Shown here piece after piece: positions 8,771 to 48,000 of a DNA stretch of 64,000 nucleotides. Position numbers and translations under genes: made by a program. The DNA is taken from assembly GCA_032718475.1 (NCBI GenBank), contig JAUCBJ010004144.1, positions 1-64,000 of the forward strand. Reading direction: 5' to 3'. Each line of letters starts with the position of its first letter. Position 1 is the first letter of the stretch. This stretch comes from Nemertoderma westbladi. Lineage: Eukaryota; Animalia; Xenacoelomorpha. Under the pieces are notes generated by a model that saw nothing but the letters and a program-made list of their open reading frames with translations, was not told the DNA's origin and did no database searches.

Positions 8771-9038
8771 ATGTATTCAGGGAAGTTTTGACGTAAAATG
8801 GACACCATTGTTCGATTCGGTATACCAAAAAACCTTTATAAACGAGAAACTGGCTGACAACATCAATCCTTTCAAAAGTTGCAAATTTTAGCTTGAAAAG
8901 TGCTGACATGTGTATAGAATTATATTCCCTAAATGCCGTGGATTTTCAAAATTTTATTTTATTCGAATTAACTTTGTAAAGATTGCTTTGAGTTCTCATT
9001 AGTATTGGTTCTATCTATTATGCATCTATCGGTCAAGT

Positions 9039-9125
9039 GGTTCAGTAGCTCAGTTGGTAGAGCGTTGGAAATTATATGTGTAGTAGGTATCGAGTTCGAA
9101 TCCTAGTAAGTGCGAATTATTTTTT
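9039..9125 (+). ncRNA. tRNA-derived Pol III cassette (A box, B box, T6) in U3 of BEL-A; not a complete tRNA
   Basis: A box TAGCTCAGTTGG (9046-9057) with intact D-stem GCTC...GAGC. B box GAGTTCGAATCC (9092-9103). T-run 9120-9125. Anticodon and acceptor stems do not pair. Confidence 0.65.
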
Positions 9126-9322
9126 GTGCAGAATTTCAACTCATTTAAATTAACCGCTACAAATTAATTGCATTTATCTGTACCAATAAGGCTGTAGTTA
9201 TTTGATTGTAACCAATGTCGTGCAAGTTATATATTAGCTGGACCAATAAGCTATCTTTAAAACCTTGTTAGAACCCATAGAACAATCGAGAATTTTCTCG
9301 ATTGATTGCAGCACAAATTTAG

Positions 9323-9329
9323 TATAAAA
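9323..9329 (+). promoter_or_regulatory. Candidate TATA box of the BEL-A LTR
   Basis: TATAAAA preceded by three CCAAT motifs (~9183-9247). Confidence 0.5.
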
Positions 9330-10814
9330 GGTGCGATTTCGTTCATTAGTTATCTCAATCACTTCAATATTCACATCATTATTCTGTCGTGCTTAGTTTA
9401 TTCTCAGATTACATTGTATTATAATTGTGTCTTCTGTAATAAAGTCAGAATATTCTCTCAGCTTTTCTGTTTTACTATGAATTCACTACGGTGAACAAAC
9501 TCAGGGACAGGATGGCCGGCTAGAGATCGGGCCGCAGCAATGAACGGGAACATCACGGGAATGTAGACGAGAGACAACCCGCAATACCATTTTAGAGTTA
9601 TTCGCCCATCGCCTGAAAGGTTAGACAGCGTTCGATCCTTGCTACCTAAGTGTAAGACCAAAAGATCAAAGGTAGACGTAGTGACACGCTGTGAGCCCAA
9701 AATTACATCATAGGGACTGTACTGTCTTGATTCAGGGAAAACCGCAGTAGACCTTCATATTCCTACGGGGGGAGGGAGAGAGAGCAGATACTAGTACGCA
9801 GATAGGACGTAGGCACACCGGTACAAGGCATACACATTGGTTAGGGTGCAGCAAACTGTACGCTTAACTCTTGCTAAGTACAGGTGTGTGTGCGACTATT
9901 TGCAGTACGACCGTGTCTATTACATCAGAACTTGTAGGCTAGGGGGTTGCTGTGTTTTCACCTGAATTGGGATTGTACCGTTCAGGCGGTAGGGCAGTTT
10001 ACGCTAGGCGCAAATAAATTGAGGCTATCAGGGATATACTAACATCTACCGTGTCCCCGCCAACGCCCTAATAGGAAGTTACCCGGACTACCTGGGTGAC
10101 TAAAATTCTAGATAGGAGCCAGGATAGCTATTAGTACCCGTACGCCTACAGTAGTAAACTAACACATCTCTTCTTAGTATCAGGGACCTGGTACCTAAAA
10201 TTGCCGAATTCTGGGCGTAGTATTAACCTTATGCCTGAATTTGAGTCCTGGAAATACGCAAGAGGGGAAGGAACCTTATCATTCGTGAGTATTGGACCTA
10301 CAAGTTATAAAATTAGAATATTCGTAAAATACACACCGTACCCAGTAATTATATATGTGAAGGAGCAAAACTGCTTTGACCGTTCAGAATTAACACACGC
10401 GCGTTAGAAATTATTTACACCTCAAAATATATAAAATTAACTTTCGTCCTTACTGCACTTTGCTCGCTAGTTAGACATCTCCAAATCTGCTCTATACCTA
10501 GCTAGCGTCCCTTTGCCCAACCATATAAATCACACCGCGGCAAAGTATACGAGCCTCTTAGTCCGTCAGTGAGTCAGCCTGATTTTAGGATTCGCTGCGC
10601 GGGATTTTGTTTTATCGAAGTTTGTCTGCTCGTAGACTGTTTTCTGCCTCACCGGTTAAAAGAGATCGATACTGCAATATATTCGCTACTTGGGGTTTAC
10701 TGTTTTGGTGAGAAGGTCGGATTTATGATTTGATTTACAAACTTTACAGTAGGATATTGCAGGTATTGTTACCGTCTCTTCCGATAGTAGGAATAGGCGT
10801 ATCTCTCCAATTTA

Positions 10815-10825
10815 GTAGGAATATG
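10815..10825 (+). promoter_or_regulatory. Non-tRNA primer-binding site of BEL-A (self-complementary to LTR)
   Basis: GTAGGAATATG directly follows the LTR, with no TGG. Exact reverse complement CATATTCCTAC at 9756-9766. Confidence 0.75.
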
Positions 10826-11622
10826 TTTTACTGAACTACGGTTCGGTAGGACTAAAGTTTTTTGAAAAATTTGTATTTTGAGGTAAAAATTTGTATTTGA
10901 TTAGCTAAGTGCTAATTTTTTGAAATAAAATTTGATTTGAACCGCGTGTAAAATTTTTTGGAATTGAATACCGGTGTTTAAAAGGGTTTAAATACCATAT
11001 TGTACCGGTACAAAATTTTCGTAAAGTAAAACCTAACTCTTTTGTTTTTCAGGATTCAGAACTCATTTCTAGACTGTAACGGGAGCAAGACCTCGTTTAG
11101 CAAGTTTGGGAGATAGATAACTCAACAACTTTGGTTGGGAAAATCGCGTTTCGTCCGCAACGTTAAAAACGGAAAGGTTCACGTCCGGTTTGTATCTGGG
11201 AATCTGTTTTTCTGGAGAATTATTGGAGTGGGTGAGTTTGAAAAGTTGCATAAATAAGTTAGGCATTACCGTATTAGTTAAAATTATTGTGGGTTCCACT
11301 GTCTCAAGTATTTATGCATTCCGTATGATTTCTTTGTTCATTGCTGAATTAGTCCGTATTATTGTATTTAATTTACCTTTTGATAACGCATATCGTTATC
11401 CGATTTATTTGTTGTAAAATTGGCCGCTAGGCTAATTTTATTATATACTTATTCCGTGACATTTATTTGCTGTAAAATTGGCCGTTTTAGGCTAATTTTA
11501 TCCATCTGCTATAAAATCAGCCGGTAGGCTAATTTTATAAGACTGTAATTAGTACCGTTTAGATATAAATACGGTAAACTCGATACTTTGACACTCACTT
11601 CACTTGACTTACAACTACCGAA

Positions 11623-14600
11623 ATGAGTGACAAACAAGACTATACAAAGAATACACAAACCGACTATGACTCGTGTGACGGAGATAAGTCAGCAGCGGAA
11701 GAACAACAGGGGAAGACTCGCGAGCCTACCGAACCTACACCGTGCGCGTCACCAGTACATCCAACGGGAGTACCGGATGCCGTAGTACGAGGCGACGGCA
11801 GGACCGAGGACTTTCTAACTGTTCCGCAACCTAGATACAGGGAAACGGAATTGGTAAGTTCAGCAGGAAGCACAGAAAGTGTGGTTAGAAGCGTCGGTGG
11901 ATACATGGCGCATATAACCAGGAGTATTGGAGAAGGCCAACGCATATTAGACGGGTTGACCGCTCCGATGTCTCGATTCGAGTTCTACACCCTCCAGGTT
12001 AGAGTACAGAGTAAAGTATATAAGTCCGTAGATAATCTAGTTGGCCTACAAGATCTAGCTAGACAGAGACAGGACATGGATACTCAACTTAGAATCCTCG
12101 AGAAACTAATGATCACTAGAGAGAAACTGATTCAGTTTAAGTCGACGATTAGACAGATACAACAGGAACAAGCGGACCAGTTGTTAGGTGAGTCAGTTTC
12201 GGACGAATTATTACAACCCGAGGAAGAACAGGAATTGTACCGACTGGATGGACAATTGAAACATCTGACGGACCACTTACGCATGTGCGGCGAAGACGTC
12301 GGCGATTTGGAAACCGTGCCGGAATACACGAGGGAAACTTCATTCGCACAAATCGAATCGGCACCGGGAATACTAAATCAATCATTGGTAAGTATTCGTA
12401 GCGAAATCTGCGAAGGAAGTATAGTCACGTCAGAAGTTGCTCGACAACAGCAGCAGTTCTACAGACAGCAACACGAGATAGAAGAACAAGCTCAACTTCT
12501 AATGATACAAACAGCAGTAGAGGAAGAGAAAATACGTGTTGCAAATGTAGCGAGAATCTCTCATCTGCAGGAACAAGCCGAACTCGAAGCGGCCGAAATG
12601 GAAAGGTTAGAGTTGGACATTGCCCAACAAGCGGCAACGGCCGAGTTAGCGCAACGAACGGCAACAGCCGAGTTAGAGCGACAAACGGCAGCTGCAGCGG
12701 CCGAGTTAGAGCGACAAACGGCTGCGGCAGAGTTAGAGCGACAAAGAGTAGTTTCGGAAGCCAGAGTCGAGATGAAGACACGGCAAATAAAAGCCCAACA
12801 AGCGATACGACAAGCAGAGTTCGAGGCGCAACAACAACAAACGGAACAACGAGAAAAGGAAGTTAAACTTCGTTTCGAACTTGAGAAGAGGGCGAGAGAA
12901 TTAGCCGAAACTAAGGAAAATCTGGATCTTCTAGCCCGCGATCGATCGATGAGATCTCGCGACGGACATGATTTGGACCAGTTAGAGGTAAGACATCGCC
13001 AAATTCAGGAACGGAAGAAGGAAGGAAGCGTAGGAGCACCCGGACGGGAACGACAATTAGTAAAAGACGTGTGTCAACGATTCCCACAGGTAACTCATAT
13101 GTTTGCACCGGTTACGACTAAGGAACCTGTTTCGATTGCGGGTAGTAGTGATATTTCTCCTATCCATGGTGCGACGGAACACAGGTTTGTTATTCCGAAC
13201 GAGTTTATACCGCCAAGAGCAACGTCGTCGCCTATTCCGAGAGTCAAGTTAAGTAACCCACCGATTACAGATCGTAGTAGTTTATTGACCGGACCTGCGC
13301 TACTGACGACAAAACAGGTGAGTCCACCTTTGACGCCTAAACCCGTTACACATTACGCTTACCCAATGACGTTTCGACCAACAAGGCCAGCGGTTTCAAA
13401 TGCTGTCATTCGCCCACCGAACCAGTTTACATCGCAATCTACGACTTCGAGGAAGACTTGTGAGCCTACCGAACAACGGAGAACAGTGGAGACGCGACCA
13501 TTCAACCAGTTTACATCGCAATCTACGACTTCGAGGAAGACTTGTGAGCCTACCGAACAACGGAGACCAGTGGAGACGCGACCATTCAACCAGTTTACAT
13601 CGCAATCTACGACTTCGAGGAAGACTTGTGAGCCTACCGAACAACGAAGAACAGTGGACGATGTTCCGAAACGAGCCGTTAGAATTCGAACGACGCAACG
13701 GACGCGAGCACGTCGACCACCATATCCAGATGATAGTAGTACTTCGAGCGAATCGGATTACCCGAAACGCGAGGTATTTAGAACAGGGGCGGCCGATGAA
13801 TATAAACGCGAGCGTTCAGACAACTCCTTTGCAGACAATCCTCCACAGAATACACCAACACAGAAGGCGTTACAACCAACGGACGCAATTAGTACACAAC
13901 AGTTCGCCGACATTCTGCGACCAGTTGTCAACAAGTTGGCTCAGATCGAGGAGCGTCTGGAGGAAGTTCAAACCGATAGTTCGAGGAACACCGAATTCGA
14001 ATACAATAGACACCCGAAGGCACCACAAAGACCGGTACCTTCAAACCCCACATCGTATCAGGGAAAAGCGCCTAGAAGGGAGAACATCAACCAGGTTACC
14101 AACCAAGGACGCGAAACTCTGAACGTTGCCGAGGAGATAGCGAAATTCGCAGCCAGACAGGGATTGCCGGTACAACAACCACCGAAGTTCTCCGGTAGCT
14201 CAAAACACTGGCATACCTTCGTAGACTATATCGAATCCCAGATCGCCGTGTGCGCCTTTACGTCACGAGAGAAGTTCAATTACTTGCTCCAAACGTTGTC
14301 AGGAGAACCTAAACGTTTGGCGGAGACTTTCGTCGGTGTACCAGACGCTTTCGAACTAGCGTACGATCGTTTGACTTCGATATACGGAGGTACAGTAAGT
14401 ATGGCCAGGTCAGTAATAGAAGAACTCTGTAAGGGAGGGGCTATCACTAAACCCGTCGACTTACTAAAACTGGCTGACGAGATTAAGAACGCTATCACTA
14501 CCTTAAGATCAATTGGACAACTTGATTACGGAAATACCCCCACAGTTTTATTAAAGATAATAGGACGACTCCACCATCGACTTCGTCGGGAGTGGAGGAA

Positions 14601-17600
14601 GGTCGAATATCAGCGAGAGGAGCGAGGAGGATTCCTGAAATTAGAAGATGTGTACCTTTTAATATCCAGGGAGGCGGTAGTAGAAACTCGATCTAACTAT
14701 ACCGACCAGCACATCGTGGCAGAAGGGATCACACTGCCATCCTCCAACCGACAAAAACCCCAGACAACATCCACAAAGACGGCCACTTACGCCACACCGA
14801 CGGAATCACGACAATTCTCAGACGGTAATAGAGTATCTGCGCCCATTGGAACAAAACAGACGAGACAGCAACTCAGCGCCGACTTCAACGGCTGCCAATA
14901 CTGCGAACATTTAGGTAAGCGGTATATTGGTCACAAGTTACGGGGTTGTCGACAATTTCGCGAGTTGAACTCAGAAGAACGACGGCTGCAGATACGGCCA
15001 CTGGACTCTTGTTGGCGGTGTACGCAACACGGACACGTCCGTAAGGATTGCCCAAATACCGACACTTGTCCATCCTGTGGACGCAACCACGACGGTCTGC
15101 TCCACACAGACAGCCACACGCCGACGAAACGCTTCGCCAGGGAACACCCGGAAGCAGCAGCGAGATGTGATGCGGCTTACCGAAAACGGGAATCGAAAAC
15201 GACTCCGACTTTCGTGACCCATATAGAGGATTGCTTTTCAGAACAATCCGGATCGTCGGACGAAGAATCAGACGACGACGAATATTCTAATGGAGACGAA
15301 CAACCGTCAATCGCGCTCCTGACCACCGACCAACTGAAGGGATTCAGTGTAATCCCGATTAAAGTTACTGGCACAAAAGGAAGTAAGAGGATTTACGCGA
15401 TTCTAGACTCAGCCTCATCTCACAGTTACGTAGATGAAAAGATAGCTGACGTCGTAACAGATCTTAGACAAGGTAAGCACGTAAGTTATACAGTAAGTAG
15501 TATGCACGGCCAGCGTGCAATACCAGTGACACGAGTTAAGTTGGACTTAGACTCTCTTCTTCCAAAATCGCAACACAGCGAGAGGGAGAGGTCTTTGTTG
15601 CCCTTTAGAGATCTAACCTTTGCGGCCACGAAGGACTTTAGTAACCTACTAGGTCCAGTGCCGGAACAATCTCTGGAGGACCGTAAGTATTTCAGACACC
15701 TTGGTGTACCCGAATGTCCCGTCAATTATAGATCGGTAGCAATGCTGATCGGGACGGACCAATTCAACCTACATCAGGTGTGGGAAACCAGACCATCGGC
15801 AGTTGTAGCAGGAAACGCATACGCCTGCAGAACGCCGATAGGGTGGTATACTCGAGCGCCTGTGCGCACACTGGACGTAAGTGACGAGGAAGACGACGTA
15901 CAGAGTACATGTAGTTTATTGACTACAAACTCAATTCATTCCTTTTCACACGACGTGAACCATACTACACTACAGTCGACAAAACATCACAGACGTGTAA
16001 CTAGTATGATAAGTCACAAGGAGCAGCTAACCCACAAGGTGAGTTTAGAACTTGGGGAGAAGACGAATCAGCTAGAGATTCCATCGACGACAGATGATAG
16101 GCTTGCGAGTCTACCTACCCCAATAACTTCAACAGTGCCCATCGATATCGACGATGACGCGTTGAAAATTCATCAGTTGGAACAAGCCGCCTTGGACAAA
16201 GAATTAACGGAGAAGACTATCAGGTGGTTAGAACAAGATACAGCTGAACCTGGTAGCTACGACCCTTGTATGTCGGAACAGGAGAAACAATCTCTAAAGA
16301 TCATGGAGGATACTATCCGACAGACGGAGGACGGACATTACGAGGTGGGGATGTTATGGCGTAGCCAAAGTCCTAAACTTATAAATAACTACCCACTGGC
16401 TTTAAGACGTCTACACTCAATCCGACAACGTCTATTAAAGGACGAGAAAGCCCATCTGCAGTATAACACTCAGATGGAGACGTATTTGACGAAGGGATAC
16501 GCTATCCGAATGACTAACCCGGAGCGAGTGACAGACCAGACGTACTACTTGCCACATCACTATGTGAGACATCCCGACAAACCAGATAAAGTACGCGTAG
16601 TCAATGACTGTGCGGCTCTGTTTGAGGGAATGTCCCTCAATAGTGAATTGATGGATGGACCGAACATGAATAATTATCTTATGGGGGTGATTATGCGCTT
16701 CCATCAGCGTCAAGTAGCCTTTACTTGCGACGTAGAAGCGATGTTTCACCAAGTGAAAGCGTTAGAGCGAGACAGAGACAGTTTGCGGTTTCTCTGGTAT
16801 CCGGAAGGGGACTTAAGTCTACCACCAGCGACTTACCAAATGCAAGTTCGCGTTTTCGGTGCCAGAGACAGCCCGAATTGTACGATGTACGCCTTGAAGC
16901 AAGCCGCTAGAGATCAGAAACATCTGTATGACCCAGAGATAGTTAGAATTGTAGAACGTGACTTTTACGTTGATGACGGTTTACAAAGTTGCGACACAGT
17001 AGAACGTGCTACAACAGTAGCACATCAATTACGGGACTGCTTGGCGGGCGGAGGTTTTAACCTCACCAAATTCGCCTCAAACAGTGCCGAATTAGTTGAC
17101 TCATTCGGAACTACTGAGCGTGGAGGTGGTGATATAGACCTAGAGTTCGAACCACTACCGACGACTAAGGTGTTGGGGCTCTTTTGGGACCCAAACACAG
17201 ACAACTTTCGAGTGAAGGTGAGACTGGACAGTCAAGGAGACACACTGACGAAGAGATCATGCTTGTCAAAGTTGAGCCGATTGTTCGATCCGTTAGGATT
17301 CATCAGTCCAGTAATACTGCAAGCTCGCATTTATATGCGCAGTATATGGAAGGATGGACTAACGTGGGACGAGCCGATCTCATCAGATCAAGTGGACTTA
17401 TGGAAGACCTGGGAGGCGGAATTGTCTTCGTTAGAGGACTATTCCATACCCAGGGTTTACTTTCCATTACAGAGTACATTTCCTGACAACTTGGAACTAC
17501 ACTGTTTTTCTGACGCCAGTGACAACGGTTTTGGTGTGGCAGCGTATTTGCGCAGACAAGTAGAATCGGACGAGTTCGATGTTTCGCTCATTACTTCTAA

Positions 17601-20358
17601 GGCTAAGACCATGCCTACTAAGTATATGACGACACCACGAGCCGAGCTACAAGCCGCGACCCTGTCAACCACCATCGTGAACCTCATACAGACAGAACTA
17701 CAGTCGAGTTTACAGATATTTTATTGGACTGACGCGACGTTGGTTTTATTTTACATAAACAACGACACACTCGAATTCAAGACATTCGTAGCTAACCGTC
17801 GCGCAGAGATTCTAGACCGTTCGATAAAAGAGGATTGGCGACATTGTCCCGGACCACAAAACCCAGCTGATATTGCGTCGCGAGGAATGATGCCTGAGGA
17901 ATTCTGTAAACCGGAGAACAAAGAGTTTTGGCAACACGGACCCCAGTTCTTGCAGAAATCGACACAAGATTGGCCTCCGTTATACGACAACAAGTCCAAC
18001 ACCATTCCCAAGGACGCCGAAATCAAGAAACCAAAAAAGGGGAAGACAAAGAAAAAGACGACGGCGGCGAAACTCAAGAAAAAACCGAAGGCGAAATGGA
18101 AAGATATAACTTCAAAGGTCAAGAGAGGAAGACTTGCGAGCCTTTCTACACCAGACATATCGCCAGACGGTCAACCAGACATATCGCCAGACGGTCAACC
18201 AGACACGTTACTAGACAGTCAACCAGACATTTTGCCAGACATATCACAAAATGTTCCACCAGACGTTAGTAACGCACTGACAAACAGTAAAGCCGCAGTT
18301 TCCCTATTGGAGCGGCCTTCTATTGACAAACAACCAGATACGTTACCAGACGTATCGCCAGACACACTACTAGACAGTCGACTAGACACTAGTAATGTAT
18401 TGACTAACAATAAAGCCGCAGTTTCTCTATTGGAGCGGCCTTGTATTGACAAACTACCAATTTTGACACACTTGAGCAACCATAAGCATGGTGAAACCTC
18501 ATGTATTACAGATGTGGGTAGTACCTACGCTAATGTAAATACAGGTGTTACTTTGCGCTCAAGAGACATACCGAACTTGCAACCTACGTTGAGACCTGGG
18601 ATTAATGTCGGCAGAAAATTAAGTTTACCAAAACCTGCTGACCCCATAGAGTTCAAACCACCATTAGCGATCGACTTACAAAGTACCGACAATCAAGGTA
18701 AGAAGTCAAAGAAGGACAAATTACTTGTAGACCCGGACGGATCAACAGTCAACAAGGGAATACTTACCGGCGGACCCGTAGGCCCTTCTAGTAATTCAAA
18801 ACCTTCCAAGTTCTCCATTGACTTACCTGATGACGTCACAAATACTTACGTCGACCGTATTGTAAACTTAACAGATTCTTGGACAAGCGCTTGCCGAAAA
18901 TTAGCGTGGATTGTACGTTTTGTACAATACGTTAAAGGCAAACGCGACTTTACGCGTCGACTTACATTGACTGAGATTGACAGGTGTGAAATCATATTAA
19001 TTCGCCATTATCAACTGCGATATTTCGCGCGCGAATTCACATCTATAAGTCAAGGTCAACCAATCAAGTCGTCACCAATACTGAGTTGGAGTCCGATAAT
19101 TTATAATGGCTTAATTTGTCATAAATCTCGGCTTCAAAACATTGACTTTAACACGAACTTTAGGTACCCAATAATAATACCGCAACACCACGAACTACAA
19201 CGTGCAATGATACTGGACGCACATTTACATCTGAAACACGCTGGAAGACACCACTGTCTTTCCTACTTACGTACTAGATTTGTATTAATTAGACCCAGTA
19301 AAGCATTAAGTTCCGTGACACGTACGTGTATTATTTGTAAAAAGGTACATTCTAGAATAGGTACCCAAGAAATGAGTGAACTACCACAAGCACGACTTCA
19401 AGCATTCAGACCACCTTTTACAGAGACTGGAATTGATTGCTTTGGTCCCATACATACGAAACGTGGACGTATACTAGTAAAACGCTGGGGACTGATTTTC
19501 ACATGTATGTCCAGTAGGGCAGTTCACATTGAACGTGTGATGGATCTTTCCACCAACGCGTTTATACTAGCACTACGGCGATTTATCGCTAGACGCGGAC
19601 TAGTAAAATGCTTGTACTCAGACCAAGGGACAAACTTTGTTGGTGCTCGGAATGAGATTGCTAGAGCCTTTAAGAGATTAGATCATGATCAAATCTCGAA
19701 CGAACTGCAACCTCACAAGATTGTTTGGAAGTTTAATCCTCCAGATAGTCCTTGGAGAGGCGGAGTCTGGGAGAGATTGATTAGATCTATCAAAACGGCC
19801 ATGGCAAAGGTCATTCCAGTAAACCACATATTAACAGACGACCAACTGACAACATTGTTTGTTGAAATCGAGGCAATACTAAATACTAGACCAATAGTAT
19901 TAGTACCCGATGACAAACAATCTCAGTTCGCTTTAACACCAGCACACCTGCTTATGCAGGCACCGACCACATTGACGCCGATTTCCATTCCAATGGAAAG
20001 CGATAGTTACGGGAGAAAAGCGTGGAAAATCACGCAACTACTGGCTAACAAATTCTGGGAAATATGGCAAAACCATTATTTGCCCTCTATTTCTGCCAGA
20101 ACAACATGGTACAATAACACCCGTGCATTAAAGCCGGGAGATCACGTGCTGTTGGCAGAAGTGAATCTAAAAAGACGCTTCTGGATAACAGGTGTCATTT
20201 TAGCCACACATCCATCTATGGATGGAGTGACAAGAACTGTGACGGTACGAACAATTGACGGTCGTACAGTAGACAGACCGACTCAACGTCTCGTACTTCT
20301 TGAAGAGACTCGTAACGAGTCTGGAGACTACAAATCTCCACCTAATACTAGTAAATAA
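11623..20358 (+). CDS. BEL/Pao Gag-Pol polyprotein, 2911 aa, uninterrupted
   Basis: Coiled-coil N-terminus; DUF1759-like Gag (PPKFSGSSKHW); Cys/His knuckles (CWRCTQHGHVRKDC); protease ILDSAS; RT YLPHH...FYVDD; Pao RNase H LHCFSDAS...PRAEL; integrase HHCC, GIDCFGP, SDQGTNF, GGVWERL; DUF5641-like tail. Confidence 0.97.
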   Translation: MSDKQDYTKNTQTDYDSCDGDKSAAEEQQGKTREPTEPTPCASPVHPTGVPDAVVRGDGRTEDFLTVPQPRYRETELVSSAGSTESVVRSVGGYMAHITRSIGEGQRILDGLTAPMSRFEFYTLQVRVQSKVYKSVDNLVGLQDLARQRQDMDTQLRILEKLMITREKLIQFKSTIRQIQQEQADQLLGESVSDELLQPEEEQELYRLDGQLKHLTDHLRMCGEDVGDLETVPEYTRETSFAQIESAPGILNQSLVSIRSEICEGSIVTSEVARQQQQFYRQQHEIEEQAQLLMIQTAVEEEKIRVANVARISHLQEQAELEAAEMERLELDIAQQAATAELAQRTATAELERQTAAAAAELERQTAAAELERQRVVSEARVEMKTRQIKAQQAIRQAEFEAQQQQTEQREKEVKLRFELEKRARELAETKENLDLLARDRSMRSRDGHDLDQLEVRHRQIQERKKEGSVGAPGRERQLVKDVCQRFPQVTHMFAPVTTKEPVSIAGSSDISPIHGATEHRFVIPNEFIPPRATSSPIPRVKLSNPPITDRSSLLTGPALLTTKQVSPPLTPKPVTHYAYPMTFRPTRPAVSNAVIRPPNQFTSQSTTSRKTCEPTEQRRTVETRPFNQFTSQSTTSRKTCEPTEQRRPVETRPFNQFTSQSTTSRKTCEPTEQRRTVDDVPKRAVRIRTTQRTRARRPPYPDDSSTSSESDYPKREVFRTGAADEYKRERSDNSFADNPPQNTPTQKALQPTDAISTQQFADILRPVVNKLAQIEERLEEVQTDSSRNTEFEYNRHPKAPQRPVPSNPTSYQGKAPRRENINQVTNQGRETLNVAEEIAKFAARQGLPVQQPPKFSGSSKHWHTFVDYIESQIAVCAFTSREKFNYLLQTLSGEPKRLAETFVGVPDAFELAYDRLTSIYGGTVSMARSVIEELCKGGAITKPVDLLKLADEIKNAITTLRSIGQLDYGNTPTVLLKIIGRLHHRLRREWRKVEYQREERGGFLKLEDVYLLISREAVVETRSNYTDQHIVAEGITLPSSNRQKPQTTSTKTATYATPTESRQFSDGNRVSAPIGTKQTRQQLSADFNGCQYCEHLGKRYIGHKLRGCRQFRELNSEERRLQIRPLDSCWRCTQHGHVRKDCPNTDTCPSCGRNHDGLLHTDSHTPTKRFAREHPEAAARCDAAYRKRESKTTPTFVTHIEDCFSEQSGSSDEESDDDEYSNGDEQPSIALLTTDQLKGFSVIPIKVTGTKGSKRIYAILDSASSHSYVDEKIADVVTDLRQGKHVSYTVSSMHGQRAIPVTRVKLDLDSLLPKSQHSERERSLLPFRDLTFAATKDFSNLLGPVPEQSLEDRKYFRHLGVPECPVNYRSVAMLIGTDQFNLHQVWETRPSAVVAGNAYACRTPIGWYTRAPVRTLDVSDEEDDVQSTCSLLTTNSIHSFSHDVNHTTLQSTKHHRRVTSMISHKEQLTHKVSLELGEKTNQLEIPSTTDDRLASLPTPITSTVPIDIDDDALKIHQLEQAALDKELTEKTIRWLEQDTAEPGSYDPCMSEQEKQSLKIMEDTIRQTEDGHYEVGMLWRSQSPKLINNYPLALRRLHSIRQRLLKDEKAHLQYNTQMETYLTKGYAIRMTNPERVTDQTYYLPHHYVRHPDKPDKVRVVNDCAALFEGMSLNSELMDGPNMNNYLMGVIMRFHQRQVAFTCDVEAMFHQVKALERDRDSLRFLWYPEGDLSLPPATYQMQVRVFGARDSPNCTMYALKQAARDQKHLYDPEIVRIVERDFYVDDGLQSCDTVERATTVAHQLRDCLAGGGFNLTKFASNSAELVDSFGTTERGGGDIDLEFEPLPTTKVLGLFWDPNTDNFRVKVRLDSQGDTLTKRSCLSKLSRLFDPLGFISPVILQARIYMRSIWKDGLTWDEPISSDQVDLWKTWEAELSSLEDYSIPRVYFPLQSTFPDNLELHCFSDASDNGFGVAAYLRRQVESDEFDVSLITSKAKTMPTKYMTTPRAELQAATLSTTIVNLIQTELQSSLQIFYWTDATLVLFYINNDTLEFKTFVANRRAEILDRSIKEDWRHCPGPQNPADIASRGMMPEEFCKPENKEFWQHGPQFLQKSTQDWPPLYDNKSNTIPKDAEIKKPKKGKTKKKTTAAKLKKKPKAKWKDITSKVKRGRLASLSTPDISPDGQPDISPDGQPDTLLDSQPDILPDISQNVPPDVSNALTNSKAAVSLLERPSIDKQPDTLPDVSPDTLLDSRLDTSNVLTNNKAAVSLLERPCIDKLPILTHLSNHKHGETSCITDVGSTYANVNTGVTLRSRDIPNLQPTLRPGINVGRKLSLPKPADPIEFKPPLAIDLQSTDNQGKKSKKDKLLVDPDGSTVNKGILTGGPVGPSSNSKPSKFSIDLPDDVTNTYVDRIVNLTDSWTSACRKLAWIVRFVQYVKGKRDFTRRLTLTEIDRCEIILIRHYQLRYFAREFTSISQGQPIKSSPILSWSPIIYNGLICHKSRLQNIDFNTNFRYPIIIPQHHELQRAMILDAHLHLKHAGRHHCLSYLRTRFVLIRPSKALSSVTRTCIICKKVHSRIGTQEMSELPQARLQAFRPPFTETGIDCFGPIHTKRGRILVKRWGLIFTCMSSRAVHIERVMDLSTNAFILALRRFIARRGLVKCLYSDQGTNFVGARNEIARAFKRLDHDQISNELQPHKIVWKFNPPDSPWRGGVWERLIRSIKTAMAKVIPVNHILTDDQLTTLFVEIEAILNTRPIVLVPDDKQSQFALTPAHLLMQAPTTLTPISIPMESDSYGRKAWKITQLLANKFWEIWQNHYLPSISARTTWYNNTRALKPGDHVLLAEVNLKRRFWITGVILATHPSMDGVTRTVTVRTIDGRTVDRPTQRLVLLEETRNESGDYKSPPNTSK
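13420..13660 (+). repeat. 84-bp in-frame tandem repeat (~2.8 copies) in BEL-A gag
   Basis: NQFTSQSTTSRKTCEPTEQRR repeated three times. Confidence 0.9.
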
Positions 20359-22741: not shown

Positions 22742-23729
22742 AAGGGAGGGCAAGGGTGGACGTAAGACTCGTGAGCGTTTCTTATGATTTATGATTTATT
22801 TTGAATTATATGTTTTATATGTAGAAAATAAAACTTATATTATTTATGTTTCATATTTGAGATGCAAAGGAGTTTATATTGTTCTAAACTTATGCAGTTT
22901 ATATTTATGTTTAAGTAAAGACTTATATTTTGTAAAACTTATATTTTATATTTGTGCTTATTCCAAACTTATGCAATTTGTATTGTTCCGAATTTATGAA
23001 ATTTAGAAAGTTTAGAAGGAACTTATATTTGAAAGATTTATGTTTCATATTTGAGATGCAAAGGTTTATATTATTCTAAACTTATGCAGTTTATATTTAT
23101 ATTTAAGTAAAGACTTATAGTTAGTAAGATTTATATTTAGTAAGAATTTATATCTTATATTTACGTGATTATTTCGAACTTATGCAATTTATATTATTCT
23201 GAACTTATGCAATTTATATTGTTCCGAATATTATGCAATTTATATTTTATAAGCAGTATTTGTATTTACAGTGTAAAAGAGAAAGTTTTATAGACAGAAA
23301 ATTTTGTGCTCAGAAAGACTCATATTTGTAATTATTCCAAACTTATGCAATCTACATTTAGGTACGAAAGTATTTGTAATTACTTGAATTTATGCAATAT
23401 TTGGGATGCAATAGTAGATGGAAGACTTGCGAGCCTTTCTTATTGTTTTCATTTATTTGTATTTGTAATTGTTTGAATTTATGCAATATTTGAGATGCAA
23501 TAGATTTATATTGGTGAATTTAATTTAGATTTATATTGTACTTACTTAGTAAAGCCTTAAATACGTAAAGTTTGAATTTGTAATTATTTTTGTATCGAAT
23601 CATTACGTAGAAAGGAAGTATTGTTTGAAATTTAATTGTAAATATGTAAGTACGCCCTAAGTATTCTATAGTTTGATTGATTATTGGTGAAAACCGTATA
23701 TTTTATGCACGATAATATCCTGTTTTCAT

Positions 23730-23736
23730 GGAGCGG
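23730..23736 (+). promoter_or_regulatory. PPT-equivalent of BEL-A (GGAGCGG)
   Basis: Directly abuts the 3' LTR. The same heptamer abuts the BEL-C 3' LTR. Confidence 0.75.
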
Positions 23737-25638
23737 TATAGAATTATATTCCCTAAATGCCGTGGATTTTCAAAATTTTATTTTATTCGAATTAACTTTG
23801 TAAAGATTGCTTTGAGTTCTCATTAGTATTGGTTCTATCTATTATGCATCTATCGGTCAAGTGGTTCAGTAGCTCAGTTGGTAGAGCGTTGGAAATTATA
23901 TGTGTAGTAGGTATCGAGTTCGAATCCTAGTAAGTGCGAATTATTTTTTGTGCAGAATTTCAACTCATTTAAATTAACCGCTACAAATTAATTGCATTTA
24001 TCTGTACCAATAAGGCTGTAGTTATTTGATTGTAACCAATGTCGTGCAAGTTATATATTAGCTGGACCAATAAGCTATCTTTAAAACCTTGTTAGAACCC
24101 ATAGAACAATCGAGAATTTTCTCGATTGATTGCAGCACAAATTTAGTATAAAAGGTGCGATTTCGTTCATTAGTTATCTCAATCACTTCAATATTCACAT
24201 CATTATTCTGTCGTGCTTAGTTTATTCTCAGATTACATTGTATTATAATTGTGTCTTCTGTAATAAAGTCAGAATATTCTCTCAGCTTTTCTGTTTTACT
24301 ATGAATTCACTACGGTGAACAAACTCAGGGACAGGATGGCCGGCTAGAGATCGGGCCGCAGCAATGAACGGGAACATCACGGGAATGTAGACGAGAGACA
24401 ACCCGCAATACCATTTTAGAGTTATTCGCCCATCGCCTGAAAGGTTAGACAGCGTTCGATCCTTGCTACCTAAGTGTAAGACCAAAAGATCAAAGGTAGA
24501 CGTAGTGACACGCTGTGAGCCCAAAATTACATCATAGGGACTGTACTGTCTTGATTCAGGGAAAACCGCAGTAGACCTTCATATTCCTACGGGGGGAGGG
24601 AGAGAGAGCAGATACTAGTACGCAGATAGGACGTAGGCACACCGGTACAAGGCATACACATTGGTTAGGGTGCAGCAAACTGTACGCTTAACTCTTGCTA
24701 AGTACAGGTGTGTGTGCGACTATTTGCAGTACGACCGTGTCTATTACATCAGAACTTGTAGGCTAGGGGGTTGCTGTGTTTTCACCTGAATTGGGATTGT
24801 ACCGTTCAGGCGGTAGGGCAGTTTACGCTAGGCGCAAATAAATTGAGGCTATCAGGGATATACTAACATCTACCGTGTCCCCGCCAACGCCCTAATAGGA
24901 AGTTACCCGGACTACCTGGGTGACTAAAATTCTAGATAGGAGCCAGGATAGCTATTAGTACCCGTACGCCTACAGTAGTAAACTAACACATCTCTTCTTA
25001 GTATCAGGGACCTGGTACCTAAAATTGCCGAATTCTGGGCGTAGTATTAACCTTATGCCTGAATTTGAGTCCTGGAAATACGCAAGAGGGGAAGGAACCT
25101 TATCATTCGTGAGTATTGGACCTACAAGTTATAAAATTAGAATATTCGTAAAATACACACCGTACCCAGTAATTATATATGTGAAGGAGCAAAACTGCTT
25201 TGACCGTTCAGAATTAACACACGCGCGTTAGAAATTATTTACACCTCAAAATATATAAAATTAACTTTCGTCCTTACTGCACTTTGCTCGCTAGTTAGAC
25301 ATCTCCAAATCTGCTCTATACCTAGCTAGCGTCCCTTTGCCCAACCATATAAATCACACCGCGGCAAAGTATACGAGCCTCTTAGTCCGTCAGTGAGTCA
25401 GCCTGATTTTAGGATTCGCTGCGCGGGATTTTGTTTTATCGAAGTTTGTCTGCTCGTAGACTGTTTTCTGCCTCACCGGTTAAAAGAGATCGATACTGCA
25501 ATATATTCGCTACTTGGGGTTTACTGTTTTGGTGAGAAGGTCGGATTTATGATTTGATTTACAAACTTTACAGTAGGATATTGCAGGTATTGTTACCGTC
25601 TCTTCCGATAGTAGGAATAGGCGTATCTCTCCAATTTA
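23737..25638 (+). repeat. BEL-A 3' LTR (includes a second copy of the tRNA-like cassette at 23863-23949)
   Basis: Direct repeat of 8913-10814, followed by TSD ATGTG. Confidence 0.95.
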
Positions 25639-33465: not shown

Positions 33466-33995
33466 TGTGACGGGATCTACGGATCCCGGTTTATCCGTTG
33501 GGTTTTCTATCCACGTGTCCCCGCCGTGTGTGAAAGGTAAAAGAGTTCTGATGTTGGGTAATATGTATAAAGGTATAATAGTCTGATAGTTGATATAGTA
33601 TAGTATGACACAACAGGTAATATATAATGGCGGTAGCGGACGGTGACAGAAGTCCCCGTTCCACCCTACTGATCTGACTGAGTAAACTGAATGATATGAT
33701 TACAGGTTACTGGTTATATTGCACGGTGGCCTTATTGCTACTCAATCGATGCCTTTCCCCCCTCTGATTGGTTGATATCCCTGTTGGCACCCTTTGGAGT
33801 GTTTCCCTTCACTCCCTGTGTTCTCTCTCGGTTAGGGGTTTGGCCCCTGACCCTTATTGTGTGTGTCTCCTTTGGGGCCTATTGTCCCCGTTTACTGGGC
33901 TGACACGAGGTTGATTGGTAATCAACCTCGTGCTCCCAATATTGCTTTATGGCTCACTCTATGGGTTTGTGTTAGCGGAATTGGATAAGCTAACA
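33466..33995 (-). repeat. Element B 3' LTR (530 bp)
   Basis: Matches 39732-40100 joined to 56600-56765, with 2 substitutions and one 5-bp indel seen. Confidence 0.95.
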
Positions 33996-36288: not shown

Positions 36289-39200
36289 CTACTTTCCCGA
36301 CTCCCTTATGCTTGCTATGGGCTTCTCTGCCCCTGGTTTAGTCCTTTCACATCCTCTCCCTTTCCAACACTCTCCGGATCTGTGTCCTTTTACCACACAT
36401 CGATGACATAGTCCGTTTGCGTCTGTGTAGGCTACACGATCTCGTTTGGGCAACGCTTGCCAGTACTTGCAACTCCTGGTCTTATGGGTTCCGTCCCGAT
36501 GTAATTGACATTGGAATCCTGGATTATAGCGTTTCCTGTATAGTCCTTCACGTATCGCGCTTAGGTTTATATGTACCGATTTAATGTTTTGGTTGTCTAG
36601 ACTCGGCCTACTGGGTATATTGGGATTGTTTTTATTTACGGTGTTATTTTCTTTCTGTCCCTGCCACGGTGTGGCCCTGCTACCAGCTAACTGTGGACTA
36701 GCAGTCCCCTGTATGGCCGCGTGTGGTGGTGACTGTCCGCACGACCTGCTCTCGTCCAGGGAGTTCGATATTCTTGCTCCTATCGGGGTATATTGTCGAT
36801 ATTGTGATGGGGGAATGTCACCCTGTCCCCCCCCCAGCCGGTATGTTTGGTACTGGGGTTGATGTTAATACATTGGGGCCCATACGTCTATCTCCAATAA
36901 CTCCCCCCTCCCCTGGATATATGTTATGTCCCTGTGTATTATAGTCATGCTGCTGTACCGATATAGGCCTACCTACCTCTCGCCTACCTACCGGTATGTA
37001 CTCCGCGACTTCCGGGTTTAATCCCGTCGTTCGCGCTACCCCATCGCCTACTCTATCTCTCCCAGCATGGCCTATAATAGTATGTGCAGTAAGGCCTACA
37101 GTATGTCCTGCAGTCTGCATGTGCCCTTCCGAACCGAAGTTTATTCTTCGCGAATCTCGAATCTCCCCGCGACTACCGTACTCTCGATCGGCAGCTATAT
37201 CCCGTCGGGAAGCTTCTCTTCGATCCCCTATCCTGCTCTCGTCTTCGTATTGGTACGTCCTGTACCCCTCTCTTGGTGTGCGGTGCGTTTCTCCGGGGCG
37301 ACGGCAATCTCCCGAAGTTCGACCCCACTGGCTCCCTGACTCCATCTCTACTGTCGACGGTCCGTTATCCGTCCTCGCACTGCTATCGTTCGTGGCGACA
37401 CTTCTTCTACTATCTTCTCTTCTTCTCTTTTCTGTGTAGTATTCCGGCTCGTGAGATCTCTCGTCGACCTCCCGGTTAAACTCCACTGTTCTTCTTCTCT
37501 CTTCTGGTCGGGCTCGACGCTTCGCCTGCCCTCTCGCGACGTCAACCTGCCTCTCTCTGCTCGATCGCACGCCGCTGGGGGTACTCGCAATCCCCCTATT
37601 ACTCTCCGTCGCCGGGTGTTGCGGTTTACCTGATTCGGCCCGCGCATTATCCGCCGACGGCTGTGGGACACTCTCTGCCCCCCCTCTCTCTCTACTAACT
37701 TCTCGCGGTGAGGTGTCCGTAGCCCCCCCCCCACCCGCCACTTCTAACTTCACTACTCTCTCACTACACCTCTATACCCGTCTTGTGGGGCATTCTCTGC
37801 CCCCCCTCTCTCGCCACTAATCTTATGTGGTGGGGCGCCCGTAGCCCCCCCCCCCACCCGTCACATCTAACTTCAATATCTCTTACTTCGACTCTACACC
37901 CCTCTCTAGTCGACGCACTGTCTCCACTACGGCTGGGTCTATTCACCCCCGCCTCTCTCTCTACTACTGCGTGGCCCACCAGGCCCACTTCGGGTTGGCT
38001 CAACCCCGCTACCCCCTGCCTACCAACTACGTGGCCTACCAGGCCGCCGTCGGGTTGGCTCAACCCTGCCACCTCCTGCCTACTAACTACGTGGCCTACC
38101 AGGCCACCGTCTGCCGGGTTATGTACGTCCGACACGCTCATATTAATAGCACCATTCCCAATATTATTTGTTAAATCAATTAAATTATTAGAATTTGAAA
38201 CGAGATTTGAATTATTTAAATTAGAATTATTACTACCAGGTAAAATATTATTTGCTGCAATAAAGGGATTAGGGTTATCTACTACGGTACTATTAATATT
38301 AACATTTCCTAACGTACTACTACTACCCCCCTCGCCCGTACGGCTACACCAGTTCTGGTTCTCTCGCTCGGTGCTTGTAAGTGGGGGCTCCCTCTCTGAT
38401 ATTTCCAACCGCGCCAGTTCTAGTCGGCGCTGCTCTAGTTTGGCTTGATATTGCGCAAGCCTCCCTAGCCGGGCACGCAAATCATCCCGCTCACGCTTAC
38501 CCTCTATCTTTCTCTTTCGCATATTCTGCTCGCCCGACTCAACTCTCGCAATTATCTCAAGCCACGTCGCCGGCTCGTCCCCTACTCTCATCTTCCGCTC
38601 TACACACTCCTCGACTCTCTTACACTCCTCGACTCTCTTTCTATACTCTCTTAACTCCAACTCTCTTAACACCTTTAAGACGGCGGTTTTATCCCTCAGT
38701 TGCCGCTCTAAGCTTTTCTGCTTTGCCGCCGCCCTTTCTAAATCATACGCCAGATTTATCTCCCGCACCCTTCTTTCTTTTGCGGAGGATGTAGCAGACT
38801 TATCGGTTGCGACGGACTCCCACCCCCCCCTCTGTCCTACTAACTCTCCCCCGCCTCCCGGAACTTCCTCCGACCGACGAGACCGAATCCTCGGAGTTAA
38901 CCTCGGATTCGCCCTCCTGCGGTCTCTTCCAACCCACTAATTTTACTCCCCGGGCATCGACTAAGTATGGCCCTATGTACACTACACTAGGCTGCATACC
39001 CCTACATTCCCATAGTTCAACCAGTTCGTTGACAACTCCTCTCGCCCTCAACTCTGCTAGTTCTCTCTGTCCAGAACACACTAGGTGATCAAAGTATCTG
39101 TTCGACTCACCTAGTCGCTTTCTCAGTCTCACCTCGTCTATCTTCGCCCCCTCCTTGGCCTCCTTTCAGTAGTTCCCGGGTCGCGTTGTAGGCCCGTCGA

Positions 39201-40100: not shown

Positions 40101-42268
40101 TGTTAAACAACCGCGACACCTATACTAACAGCAGAACTGTTGAACAGACAAATACCCGTATACCTCTCTGCCAACCTAATGAGCTCTCGCCTAACCAATA
40201 AGACACAAAGACTGCTCTACTGTTAAGTAAAGGGGATCAGGAGTGTGCTATTACTAAATTGTAAGGGTTGCTAAATACAAAACCGCTACTTACCGTTGGA
40301 TGGCGCTAATCTGCCGTCCGCTAATATATTTTACTAAATTTACACAACTCCTGCAAAATCGCTTGTTCCTTTCTCTACCGATCGCTCGATAGAGAGCTAA
40401 CTGTTTGAATCTATGAGCCACGCGGGAATAACCAAAACAATAAACCCGAGTCGGCTCCCTAAGCTTACTTAAGACGAGTGCGAGGGGCTTTGCACTCAGA
40501 GTATATTCTTACGCCTAATTTTACTACTGAAATACGCCAATGCTTACGTCTTTTCTAATCGCGAATACTGAGGGTTCCCTAACGGAATGTGTGAATGCGA
40601 GAATATTTAAAATAATCAAAATTGGTACAGTACAATGTCTTTCGTAGGTGATACCGCTCTGGGTCTAAACTTGCCTGCAGCTGGCTTTAGGCCAGCAACT
40701 TACTAGTGTCTTGCGTACTGACTACTGCGATCTAGCTTATTGCCCGCTAATGCAAATAACCGCCTAGCGTGAATAGTTTACGGTACTCTAAATTATTACC
40801 TTAGCTACTCTCCGCTATGCTGCGTACTAATTCTTAATTTTACTAATTAATTACAGTCACAAATATGTAACAGCCTAAAATACTGTATTACTTTGACCTA
40901 ATCAGTAATTATTTACGGTAAACTAAGAGATAGAATCAATCAAAGGGAAAAGAGCGCCTATCTAAGCATTCGTAATCATAGGCACACTTTAGTAACACAC
41001 CAATCAGCGTCAGCAATCACAGATCACAATAGCACGACTTGCAATTATACAATCTGCAATTATATAATTCGCAACATAATAATTCGCAATTGACTAATTC
41101 GCAATCTACTTACTCGCAACTTACTTACTTACTTACTGTAAGGTATGCAGGCCCCTCCCGGGTACATCTAGGCTTCCTAACTAACCCAATTCCTGCCCCC
41201 TAATACTAAATAGAGACAAAACCTTGGATCATCAGCCCCCTAATTACTGTACCGGCGAGCGGTCTCCAACCCACAGTCCAAACTGCCCGACCACAACGTT
41301 GACCCCCGCCAGCGTTGCCCGCTTTTGAATCCTCCGCACTCCCTTCGTCGCTAACCCCCCGATGAGCCCACCGCCTACTGGCACCTTAGCCCTCCATTAT
41401 GCTAATAGCTACCGTAGCGGCGCATGCAAATCACAAAGTCTGACAGTCTCAGGAATCCCTTAGGATTATTGCGCAGAAAGGAATCACATAGAACCATTAA
41501 TCAAAGGGTAGAAATCATAGTTCAATTGTAATTAGCAGTAATCGAAGGAATTAATTGAGAAACACAATCAAAGATAATCGCACTAGCAAAGCATTTCAAG
41601 AAATTAATCAAATTTAGCAAATTGCAGAAAATACGCTAAAAATTGAATAGAGACAGCTCAGCAAGTACAAGGTGATAGCAGATCATGTGAGGTGATCATG
41701 TGAGGTTCTACCGGCACACCGCCAATTTATAGGTGATCCGGATGGGGTGATGCAATAGGGTGACGCAATCGCTCTCCTATTGGCTCTCCAGTCCGCGCTA
41801 GCATTAGACCAACCTGGAAGCAGCTAGTCCAATAAGGAGGCCGGATTGTAGCCCTATTGCCTGCCCAAACCTCGAATTATTACCTTATATGGTAATGGTT
41901 CACGTCCCTGGCCGCTGAATGGCCAGGACAGCGTCCCTATATGATAGCCCTACTGATGCTAATATCAGCAAGCACAAAATCCAGGGTCCGAATGAACTTG
42001 CTACCCTGGGACTATCTACATATATCCTAATACAAAATTACGTAGGTAGGGCTACATACTATACAAAATGGATGGATGCAAAATATATGGGCGTTTTAAC
42101 TTCCTTACCTAAATGTCACCGCACTGTGCCTTATCTAAATAATTATACTGCACAACGGACTAATATTACGTACAGTATAACGGACTAATATTGCATACTG
42201 CATAACGGACTAATACTGCATACAGTATAACGACTAATAATGTGGATACAGCGCCATATACCGTAACA
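40101..42268 (-). repeat. BEL-C 3' LTR
   Basis: Direct repeat of 54427-56594. Preceded on the minus strand by GGAGCGG (42269-42275). Confidence 0.95.
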
Positions 42269-45007: not shown

Positions 45008-48000
45008 CTAATTCTGTTTTGAGGCAGGAGACAAATTATAATCTCCCGTCTTGATACGTGTCTCCTCTAATAACACAATATCTTGGACCGGTCGGTCCAA
45101 GGTGTGTAAACCATTAGTTTTACACTTCTTTGGGTGTGGACACTTGCACCTAATTTTCACAGTGACTGTGCGCACTATGTTTTGCACGTCTGGGTGTGTG
45201 TGCAAGATAACTCCAGTCTCCCAATACTTTCTCTTGACAATCGGCTCGGTTATCAATACGTAGTCTCCCCTTTGGAGACTCCGAACCGTTTTGTACCACT
45301 TTGTTCTGGTGGATATGGTGGGAAGATAGTATTCCCGCCAATATTCCCAGAATGTGTACGCGACTAATTGTGTTACTTTCCAGCTCTTACGACTATATAG
45401 GTCGGCACTAATGGGTTCTGATGCCGGCACAAGAAATGCTGGACTCTGCATTAGCAAATGATTCGGCATTAATGCAACACCGTCTGGCAACATAGCTATC
45501 GGCCTCGAGTTTAGGGTATGCTCGATTTCAATGAAAGCTGTAACCAGTTCGTCGTCGGTAAGTTGTTTGTTCACAGGCAACGTCTTAGCAATGGCCTGCT
45601 TTACAGAGCGAACTAAACGCTCCCAACTTCCTCCTCTCCAAGGACTTTCTGGAGTATTAAATCTCCATTCTACTCTTTGCGGCAAAAGTGCTGCAGAAAT
45701 TTCCTTATTCTGTGCTGCTTTATGAGCCGCGTTCAACTCGTTATTCCCTCCGACAAAGTTTGTACCCTTATCGGAGTAGAACGCCTTTACTAGTCCTCTC
45801 CTGGCCATAAATCTCTTTAAGGCCAGGAGCAGAGATTTGGTCGACATGTCTGCCACACGCTCGATATGTATGGCTCTACTAGCCATGCATGTCAGTAGCA
45901 GACCCCATCGCTTGTGGGTCAGCCGTCCACTCTTTGCTTCAATCGGACCAAAACAGTCCACCCCTGTGTTCGTAAAGGGTGGGTCATATGCCTGCACTCT
46001 CGCTTCCGGGAGTTCAGCCATCTCCTGTTCCAATACTCTGGCGTTCACCCTCTTGCAAACCAGACAGGCGTCGTACATGGTGCCGACTGCCCTGCTTGGC
46101 TGCAATAGAATGAATCGCTGTCTCGCTGCCGACAAACAGTGTAACCTTCCCGCGTGATGCAACCTCTTATGTATATCCCATAGAATCGCTCTTTGCAATT
46201 CTATTGGGTGACTAGGGATTATCACTGGGAACCGAAACTGTGAGTTTATGTCGACAGTCTGGATTCTCGATCTATGACAAATTAAACCCTTATGGATTAA
46301 TGGACTCCATTTTCTAAGGGGTTTATAGAGAACTGGTCGTTGAGCCGATAATAGATGGAATTCTTTCGGGAAGGCACACATTTGATAATGCTTCAAATGC
46401 TTTAATTCCGCTTGATCAATCTCATCCTCTGTCAGAGGTTGTTTCAATTTCCGAATTCGCTCACTATTGGTGCTCAATGGTTCTCTCAAATGTTTCGAAT
46501 GTTTTAAACAAAGGTACGAAGTGTATCGGCTTAACCACGCAGTTCTTTTACAAATTGTCAGCCAAGAGGCAGACGAATTTAGTAATTTGTCATAAATACT
46601 GCATGACTCTAATGCCAGCGACGGTTGTCCGCTAACTAATGGAAGTTTCGAATCCAAACCCGCAGGGTTGGAAACCAAAGGATCCATTGTGTCGGTCATT
46701 TTCTGTCCGTCACTTACCAACTGTGACTGTCGTCTAGTCGGTAAGGGTGGTTTTACGTCATAACTTACCCTTCCGGACCTAGTAGTCACGTAAGTCTGTT
46801 GGTCTGACAGGTCTCCGGGCCGCTCCAATGACTCTTCAGGCCGCTCCAATGACTCTTCAGGCCGCTCCAATGACTTAAGTTTGGCTTTAGACTTCGACTT
46901 AGAGACTTTCTCCACCTTGACTTCTGCATCTTCAGGCATCGGATTGGTCACTATCTTTAGTCGCTCTGGCCAATGTTCCTGTGTCCTCGTTAGAAAGTCA
47001 GGTCCATGCAACCAAAACTCCTGAGACTCTTCCTGACAGAATTCCGCCGGCATTGCACCTCTCGAAGTTATGTCGGCCGGGTTCAACACTCCCGGACAAT
47101 GTCTCCATTGTTCCTTCGTCGAAAAATCAACGATCTGAGCGCGTCTGTTGGCCACAAATGTCTTTAGTGCAATATTGTCGGCCGCAATGTATACTAACAC
47201 CAAGGATGCGTCCGTCCAATAGAATAAGGTCAATGTCGTGTCTAACTCCTCTGTTATCTGCTTACTTACCTCGACCGAAACTACAGCCGCCTGTAACTCT
47301 GCACGAGGGACAGTCATGTATTTGACCGGCATTGTCTTTGATCTAGAAGTCACAAAGGCCGTTTCAAACTTGTCCTGACTTACCTCTCGGCGAAGGTAGG
47401 CTACCATACCAAAGCCGGTGTCACTTGCGTCACTAAATAGGTGGAGCTCTAAATCAGCTGGGAATACCAGCTGATTCGGAAAGTAGGAACGGGGTACATC
47501 TATATTTTTCAATAGATGTAACTCGGCTTCCCACTCCCTCCACTGCTTCGCATGTATAGGAGATATTGGTTCGTCCCACTCTATGTCGGACAACCAAATT
47601 TTCCTCATGCACGCTCGTGCCTGTAATATAACCGGACTGATAAAGTTCATCGGGTCAAATAGTCTACTTAAAGTCGATAAGCAAATTCTCTTTGTCAAAA
47701 TTTTGTCTGGGCTACTGGGCTCAAATCTAACTCTTACCTGGAACTTGTCTGTATTCGGATTCCAAGCGAGTCCCAGTACTCGCGCCATGGGGATTGGTTC
47801 TACCCCCAATTCAATGTCTCCGCTCCCGCGATCTTTCACCGGGAACGACTCTAATAGGGCCTCCGAGTTCGTAGTGAACTTGGTCAGAGGGAATCCCCCT
47901 GTAGCCAAGCACTCCTGTAGGCCGTGAGCCACTTCTATGGCTTGTTCCGCCGTGTCCTTGGACACCAATCCGTCGTCCATATAGAAGTTTCTCAAGATGG

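Follow-up and report, generated by a model that had tools for sequence, protein, structure and literature searches.

PBS sequences complementary to the element's own LTR in BEL/Pao-type retrotransposons and a gag-only relative: candidates for self-priming

Three LTR elements in a satellite array

The window analysed here comprises 64,000 nucleotides from Nemertoderma westbladi (contig JAUCBJ010004144.1, positions 1 to 64,000) and consists of a 416-bp satellite array and three LTR elements, A, B and C (Table 1). The satellite is present in at least 53 copies, with variants of 355 and 324 bp, at 172–7411, 25831–33466 and 56766–64000. It directly follows the end of a further C-family LTR (93% identical) at 1–171, and a tandem array of a 162-bp unit (6.3 copies) lies at 7753–8772.

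Table 1. Coordinates of the three elements and of the features discussed in the text
Feature	Position	Strand	Description
Element A	8913-25638	+	16.7 kb, young, BEL/Pao-type
A TSD	8908-8912 and 25639-25643		ATGTG, 5 bp
A 5' LTR	8913..10814	+	1902 bp, TA..TA ends
A TATA box	9323..9328	+	start predicted near 9355
A proximal AATAAA	9438..9443	+	329 nt upstream of pairing-site 3' end
A intron candidate	9620..11052	+	1433 nt, GT..AG; would remove pairing site and PBS
A local hairpin	9714..9983	+	270 nt; -118.7 kcal/mol, z -6.7, 0/200 shuffles
A candidate self-primer	9756-9766	+	CATATTCCTAC; 1048 nt from LTR end; second copy 24580-24590
A distal AATAAA	10013..10018	+	246 nt downstream of pairing site
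A PBS	10815-10825	+	GTAGGAATATG; 11 nt, directly 3' of LTR
A gag-pol	11623..20358	+	single ORF (2.9 kaa); DUF1759, Peptidase_A17, integrase zinc finger, DUF5641
A PPT-like tract	23729..23736	+	TGGAGCGG; adjoins 3' LTR; identical 8 bases in C
A 3' LTR	23737..25638	+	1902 bp, 100% identical to 5' LTR
Element B	56765-33466	-	530-bp LTRs, TSD ATTTT, 5' LTR split by C
B 5' LTR, two pieces	56765-56595 and 40100-39732	-	
B candidate self-primer	39917-39909	-	TTCTGTCAC; 177 nt from LTR end; second copy at 33643
B PBS	39731-39723	-	GTGACAGAA; 9 nt, directly 3' of LTR
B gag-like ORFs	36289..38936	-	fragmented; BEL-like zinc knuckle
B 3' LTR	33466..33995	-	530 bp
Element C	56594-40101	-	16.5 kb, young, BEL/Pao-type; sits in 5' LTR of B
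C 5' LTR	54427..56594	-	2168 bp, TG..CA, TSD GAGAG
C candidate self-primer	55473-55464	-	CATACCTTAC; 1037 nt from LTR end; second copy at 41138
C PBS	54426-54417	-	GTAAGGTATG; 10 nt, directly 3' of LTR
C gag-pol	45008..53344	-	same four Pfam domains as A; one in-frame stop near 52097
C 3' LTR	40101..42268	-	2168 bp; LTR pair 99.7% identical

All three elements have 5-bp TSDs and a purine-rich tract ahead of the 3' LTR. The LTRs of A carry TA at both ends (8913–8914 and 10813–10814) instead of TG..CA; the TSD is clean and the two LTRs are identical. Contigs of four runs (X1, X3, X4 and X5) were compared with positions 8900–11700; at the left boundary of A, X4 contigs from the flank of another insertion stop before 8913. 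Past pol, A has two additional ORFs (21160–22741), one with a weak zinc-knuckle match, and a short translated match connects the 3' part of A with that of C (E = 1e-7). In C, the stop at 52097–52099 (minus strand) cuts the first 415 codons off the remaining gag-pol.

A and C share the gag-PR-RT-RH-INT order and Pao-type domains (Peptidase_A17, E = 1e-39 to 1e-42), and PF05380 was present in 120/120 homologues among the matches listed. The two are sisters (RT-RH identity 61%, SH-aLRT 100). In a quick 58-row tree, which was built with neither an outgroup nor named reference elements and omits three families that have no 400-aa stretch (L066 among them), they form a long branch and have no close relative. 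The closest database proteins are 38–45% identical to those of A and C, and the named ones come from molluscs, echinoderms, cnidarians, shrimp and fish. An earlier note on this DNA had counted three BEL/Pao elements; A and C are such elements, but B is not a coding one. Three ORFs of B had no Pfam match, no pol was found, and its resemblance to BEL homologues is confined to the Gag zinc-knuckle stretch (best E about 1e-6). By these features B appears to be a gag-only, non-autonomous relative of A and C.

Each PBS is complementary to its own LTR

In A, B and C the PBS pairs with a site inside the element's own LTR, in a register fixed at the LTR end and with a sequence specific to the family, and the pairing extends to related families (see below). 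The six motifs reported in the earlier note were all found again at their places, and the register was confirmed, the first base after the LTR being the start of the duplex (offset 0) in 3/3 elements. The statement that a TGG-type PBS is lacking also held: none is found in the 10 nt next to the LTR end in A, B or C, and the first TGG past the LTR is at +145 (A), +19 (C) and +106 (B). The PBS sequences, described as distinct, are each family-specific, but those of A and C are partly similar (GTA.G..TATG).

A match was contained in 2/3000 dinucleotide shuffles of the A LTR, 3/3000 of the C LTR and 3/3000 of the B LTR. Decoys taken from real sequence (leader windows, offsets 0–3) equalled the match length in 3/130 cases for A, 2/130 for C and 0/130 for B. 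By shuffling, the chance is near 1e-3 for each element; the leader-window decoys put the background for A nearer 1–2% than the 5e-4 previously given. When 15 foreign PBSs were compared with each LTR at offset 0, the longest match was 7 nt on the A LTR and 6 nt on those of C and B.

The internal regions of A, B and C hold no longer complement to the PBS, the longest being 6–7 nt, and a scan of the window returned no tRNA and no Rfam RNA. In Cer7 the primer is encoded elsewhere in the element; a primer of this kind was rejected here, given the short internal complements and the lack of a tRNA or Rfam match. A primer built by splicing was likewise rejected for A, B and C, where the best candidates reach 7, 0 and 5 nt and decoys do as well.

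Several repeats and splice-like motifs lie near the paired stretches. A second 9-base copy of the start of the A PBS, GTAGGAATA, is found at 10787–10795, 28 nt ahead of the LTR end, and overlaps a predicted splice acceptor. In C (minus strand), five GTAAGT donor-like motifs occupy 55462–55434, the first of them one base past the pairing site, and an acceptor-like motif lies 59 nt ahead of the site. In the leader of B (39720–39620, minus strand), the PBS core TGACAG occurs three further times.

The core duplexes between site and PBS amount to only -12 to -14 kcal/mol, and they are absent from the minimum-energy folds of naked RNA in A, B and C. Flanking helices were significant on the 3' side in A (5/921 windows) and on the 5' side in B (10/505), and none was found in C. 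In A, the pairing site is located in the 5' arm of the 9714–9983 hairpin. The site being within so strong a hairpin, the hairpin would have to be opened; it could act as a switch or as a substrate for a double-strand RNase. No such hairpin was found at the pairing site in B, C or the related family L074, and no helix extension or hairpin common to the sites of A, B and C was found.

The pairing recurs in related families

Relatives were collected from metagenome contigs, giving 80 loci in 41 families, which may stem from few host species; the viral and prokaryote collections yielded no loci. The 5' LTR end was mapped from LTR pairs in 13/41 families, and the other 28, including L053 and L056 with ambiguous nested repeats, were dropped before counting. 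A tRNA-type PBS, with TGG in the 10 nt next to the LTR, was seen in 0/13 families. In 11/13 the PBS pairs with a predicted intron joint inside the LTR, over 10–15 nt and starting 0–5 nt from the LTR end. In L074 alone the complement is contiguous, with 12 nt at offset 5.

The introns are predicted from sequence alone, each by the donor GTRAG and a pyrimidine-rich acceptor ending in AG. Under the first splice rule (offsets 0–3, eight pyrimidines of 12), 8/13 families passed; under a loosened rule (offsets 0–6, eight of 15), 11/13 did. The decoys were repeated under the loosened rule, and 0/75 passed for each of the 12 passing families. The failures were the family L073 and the single copies L054 and L031. 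L073 has a PBS of the L012 type, and in the 5' copy examined its donor has decayed. Four of the 11 splice-joint families have one PBS type in common, so that the 11 represent 8 distinct sequences. When an identical full search was run across elements, a match of at least 10 nt to the own LTR was obtained in 14/16, and to a foreign LTR in 7/220 pairs; five of these seven are due to one PBS type on the long C LTR.

The paired PBS stretch begins with GT in 13/15 passing elements, A, B and C among them, and with AT in 2/15. An AATAAA or ATTAAA is found 17–130 nt past the primer end in 9/12 passing relatives, and a hexamer downstream of the primer end fits the need for strand transfer after a cut there. 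The earlier note had suggested scanning related families for complementarity, and 12 of the 13 do have a pairing of their own. Its idea of a BEL/Pao lineage with a PBS complementary to its own LTR is thereby supported and widened as far as the pairing goes (with 0/13 TGG); the priming role is still something that we infer. The families fall into two predicted forms. A, B, C and L074 would represent an intron-less form, and in most relatives the splicing of an intron inside the LTR is predicted to build the primer.

In the LTRs of L012, L032 and L066, an acceptor-like AG lies 13 nt ahead of the donor, which suggests a 13-nt micro-exon carrying the 5' half of the predicted primer. The L061 LTR has alternative acceptors at offsets 320 and 550, both followed by TTTAC, so that an identical 11-nt match would result from the use of either one.

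The transcript of element A and the proposed primer

The upstream TATA box that the earlier note had mentioned for A was located at 9323. A joint between 9619 and 11053, corresponding to the intron candidate, is carried by one X4 contig with a depth of 250 and with 26 letters on its shorter side, which is below the 30-letter caution level; it is not among the joints listed for X1, X3 and X5. The acceptor of this intron is the best of two that pass in the LTR plus leader. X4 was labelled DNA by guess. We read it as RNA because of the splice joint and because it shows 51 A>G places, compared with 18, 19 and 9 in the remaining three. On the reading of X4 as RNA, the joint implies that the RNA begins upstream of 9620, in agreement with the TATA box, and that the pairing site is internal. 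The A pairing site is thus probably not the RNA 5' end, the joint being a hint and not proof. The suggestion that TCATATT is an initiator and the site the transcript 5' end is accordingly disfavoured, and the alternative named with it, an internal primer made by cleavage, fits the joint better. Within the site, T9758C accounts for 23% of the depth in X1 and 27% in X3; it would break the ninth pair counted from the priming end, unless PBS base 10823 covaries.

From the pairing and its recurrence we consider self-priming in some form to be likely. As to its form, we lean slightly towards a process in which A, B and C would prime minus-strand DNA with an internal stretch of the element's RNA, which is predicted to be cut immediately 3' of the site. 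On the unspliced RNA, the site, which ends in AC, would anneal to the PBS, which starts with GT. The element's RT would then use its RNase H to cut behind the AC, as in Tf1, leaving a 3'-OH, and extension from this 3'-OH would copy the LTR beginning with its terminal base. For A this would mean a long 5' fragment as primer, about 410 nt if counted from a start near 9355, and not just the first 11 nt. Since an AATAAA lies upstream of the A site, and no poly(A) hexamer was found in the LTRs of B and C, R may not cover the site. Strand transfer needs R past the cut, and so read-through or a second packaged RNA must be assumed: the A genomic RNA would extend beyond the 3' LTR copy of the site, as the distal AATAAA (10013) would allow, or a second packaged RNA would serve strand transfer. 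The spliced A RNA, with 9620–11052 removed, would lack both site and PBS and would be used solely for translation.

A start of the Tf1 kind is an alternative to the internal cut. Here a second, downstream start would place the site at the 5' end of a dedicated genomic RNA, and the TATA promoter would make the spliced mRNA. The available text of PMC5341516 offers a precedent in Tf2, in which alternative starts gain or lose the self-primer. The A site begins in TCATATT, the distance from site to LTR end is alike in A and C (1048 and 1037 nt), and among the relatives a TATA box precedes the primer by 31 nt in L049 and a TATA-like motif precedes it by about 45 nt in L074. However, A, B and C have no TATA-like motif 25–35 nt upstream of the site, the only joint found implies a start upstream of 9620, and the possible extra pairing in A and B is 5' of the site. 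We therefore regard such a start as unlikely. It is also distinctly unlikely, in our view, that the pairing is real but has another role (splicing switch, packaging or dimer formation) and that a host RNA, for example a tRNA fragment, primes. The position of the A site within both a strong hairpin and an intron is switch-like, and the pairing of the relatives exists only after splicing, as in a splicing sensor; yet the duplex ends 0–5 nt from the LTR boundary, where synthesis is required to start. Seven bases of the B site resemble the anticodon loop of tRNA-Asp(GUC), which would favour a host primer. Half-tRNA priming is known in some copia lineages, according to the available text of PMC6317226. 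Against it, the twelve PBS sequences (A, B, C and nine types in the relatives) would need twelve host RNAs, yet each fits its own LTR.

Finally, the matches in A, B and C might be due to chance, or be functionless relics of old copying errors. The A and C LTRs are about 2 kb long, decoys reach 11 nt in 3/130 windows for A, one foreign PBS type obtains 10–11 nt on the C LTR when offsets and splicing are allowed, and the folds do not contain the duplex. On the other hand, shuffling gives a chance near 1e-3 for each of the offset-0 matches, which are present in 3/3 elements; the elements, with LTRs 98–100% identical and TSDs intact, have moved recently and have no other PBS; and the same signature is present in 12/13 related families. 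This explanation is very improbable. Returning to priming by the element's own RNA, a broader proposal can be made tentatively, with slightly less than even confidence. In a broad animal BEL/Pao lineage, tRNA priming would have been replaced by an own-RNA primer under the control of the spliceosome. Removal of an LTR intron would assemble the primer in most families; in families of the intron-less form, A for example, the primer would arise from an internal cut, and an alternative splice would delete both site and PBS. Splicing would thus sort genome from message.

Complements of the own LTR that serve as PBS, with a primer cut from the element's own RNA, are described for Tf1 and Tf2 of Schizosaccharomyces pombe and for Tj1 of S. 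japonicus in the available portions of PMC5341516 and PMC4600332. A, B and C resemble these elements and the Tf1/sushi group in having no tRNA PBS and a PBS complementary to their own LTR. Unlike Tf1/sushi elements, which encode a Ty3/gypsy chromovirus polyprotein, A and C have BEL/Pao domains. In Tf1, Tf2 and Tj1, as far as the same portions go, the primer is the mRNA 5' end and the LTR is short, whereas here the site lies 45–65% into the LTR and is probably internal; in A and C it is separated from the PBS by about 1 kb, and in most relatives it is split by a predicted intron. An extra U5 stem beside the primer duplex, a Tf1/sushi trait, is present in A (5/921 windows) and not in B or C. Self-priming has also been predicted for Tcn1 (gypsy) and for TAR, Houba and Osr-1 (copia), by a complement of at least 10 bases located 0–5 nt after the 5' LTR (available text of PMC6317226). 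By this rule A and C would be included, and B, with 9 nt, is one base short. Those elements belong to plant gypsy and copia lineages, and in that text have no splice-built primer.

The ICTV profile of the Belpaoviridae describes a PBS of 18 nt for the 3' end of tRNA-Arg or tRNA-Gly, with LTRs of 0.2–1.2 kb and genomes of 4.2–10 kb, and calls BEL/Pao replication poorly understood (PMC8742986). A and C agree with it in their LTRs, TSD, PPT and one gag-pol ORF with Pao-type domains. They differ from it in size (A, LTR 1.9 kb and genome 16.7 kb; C, LTR 2.2 kb and genome 16.5 kb), and a tRNA-type PBS, by the TGG criterion, is absent from A, B, C and the 13 related families. Three BEL/Pao papers (PMC554778, PMC3118150, PMC6238403) are silent in their main text on PBS, tRNA and priming, and the available parts of five others (PMC3601003, PMC5443660, PMC5445492, PMC8220671, PMC3286476) contain nothing on BEL priming. 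In this literature, as far as its text was available, no self-priming or splice-built primer was found for BEL/Pao; subscription journals, Repbase notes and supplements may contain a prior description. Host-tRNA priming is the current assumption for BEL/Pao. If self-priming is true, BEL/Pao would join gypsy and copia as the third superfamily to prime without a tRNA, and its internal or splice-assembled primer would be mechanistically unlike that of Tf1. A self-primer would also account for the lack of a recognisable PBS in these elements, and it gives a simple rule for annotation.

Two further observations concern the RNA of element A. The depth of X4 drops relative to X1 near 9464, in contigs that by their nature cannot show RNA ends or levels. 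One X4 contig, covering 9944–10644, has 88 differences, mainly A>G, which suggests hyper-editing of double-stranded LTR RNA.
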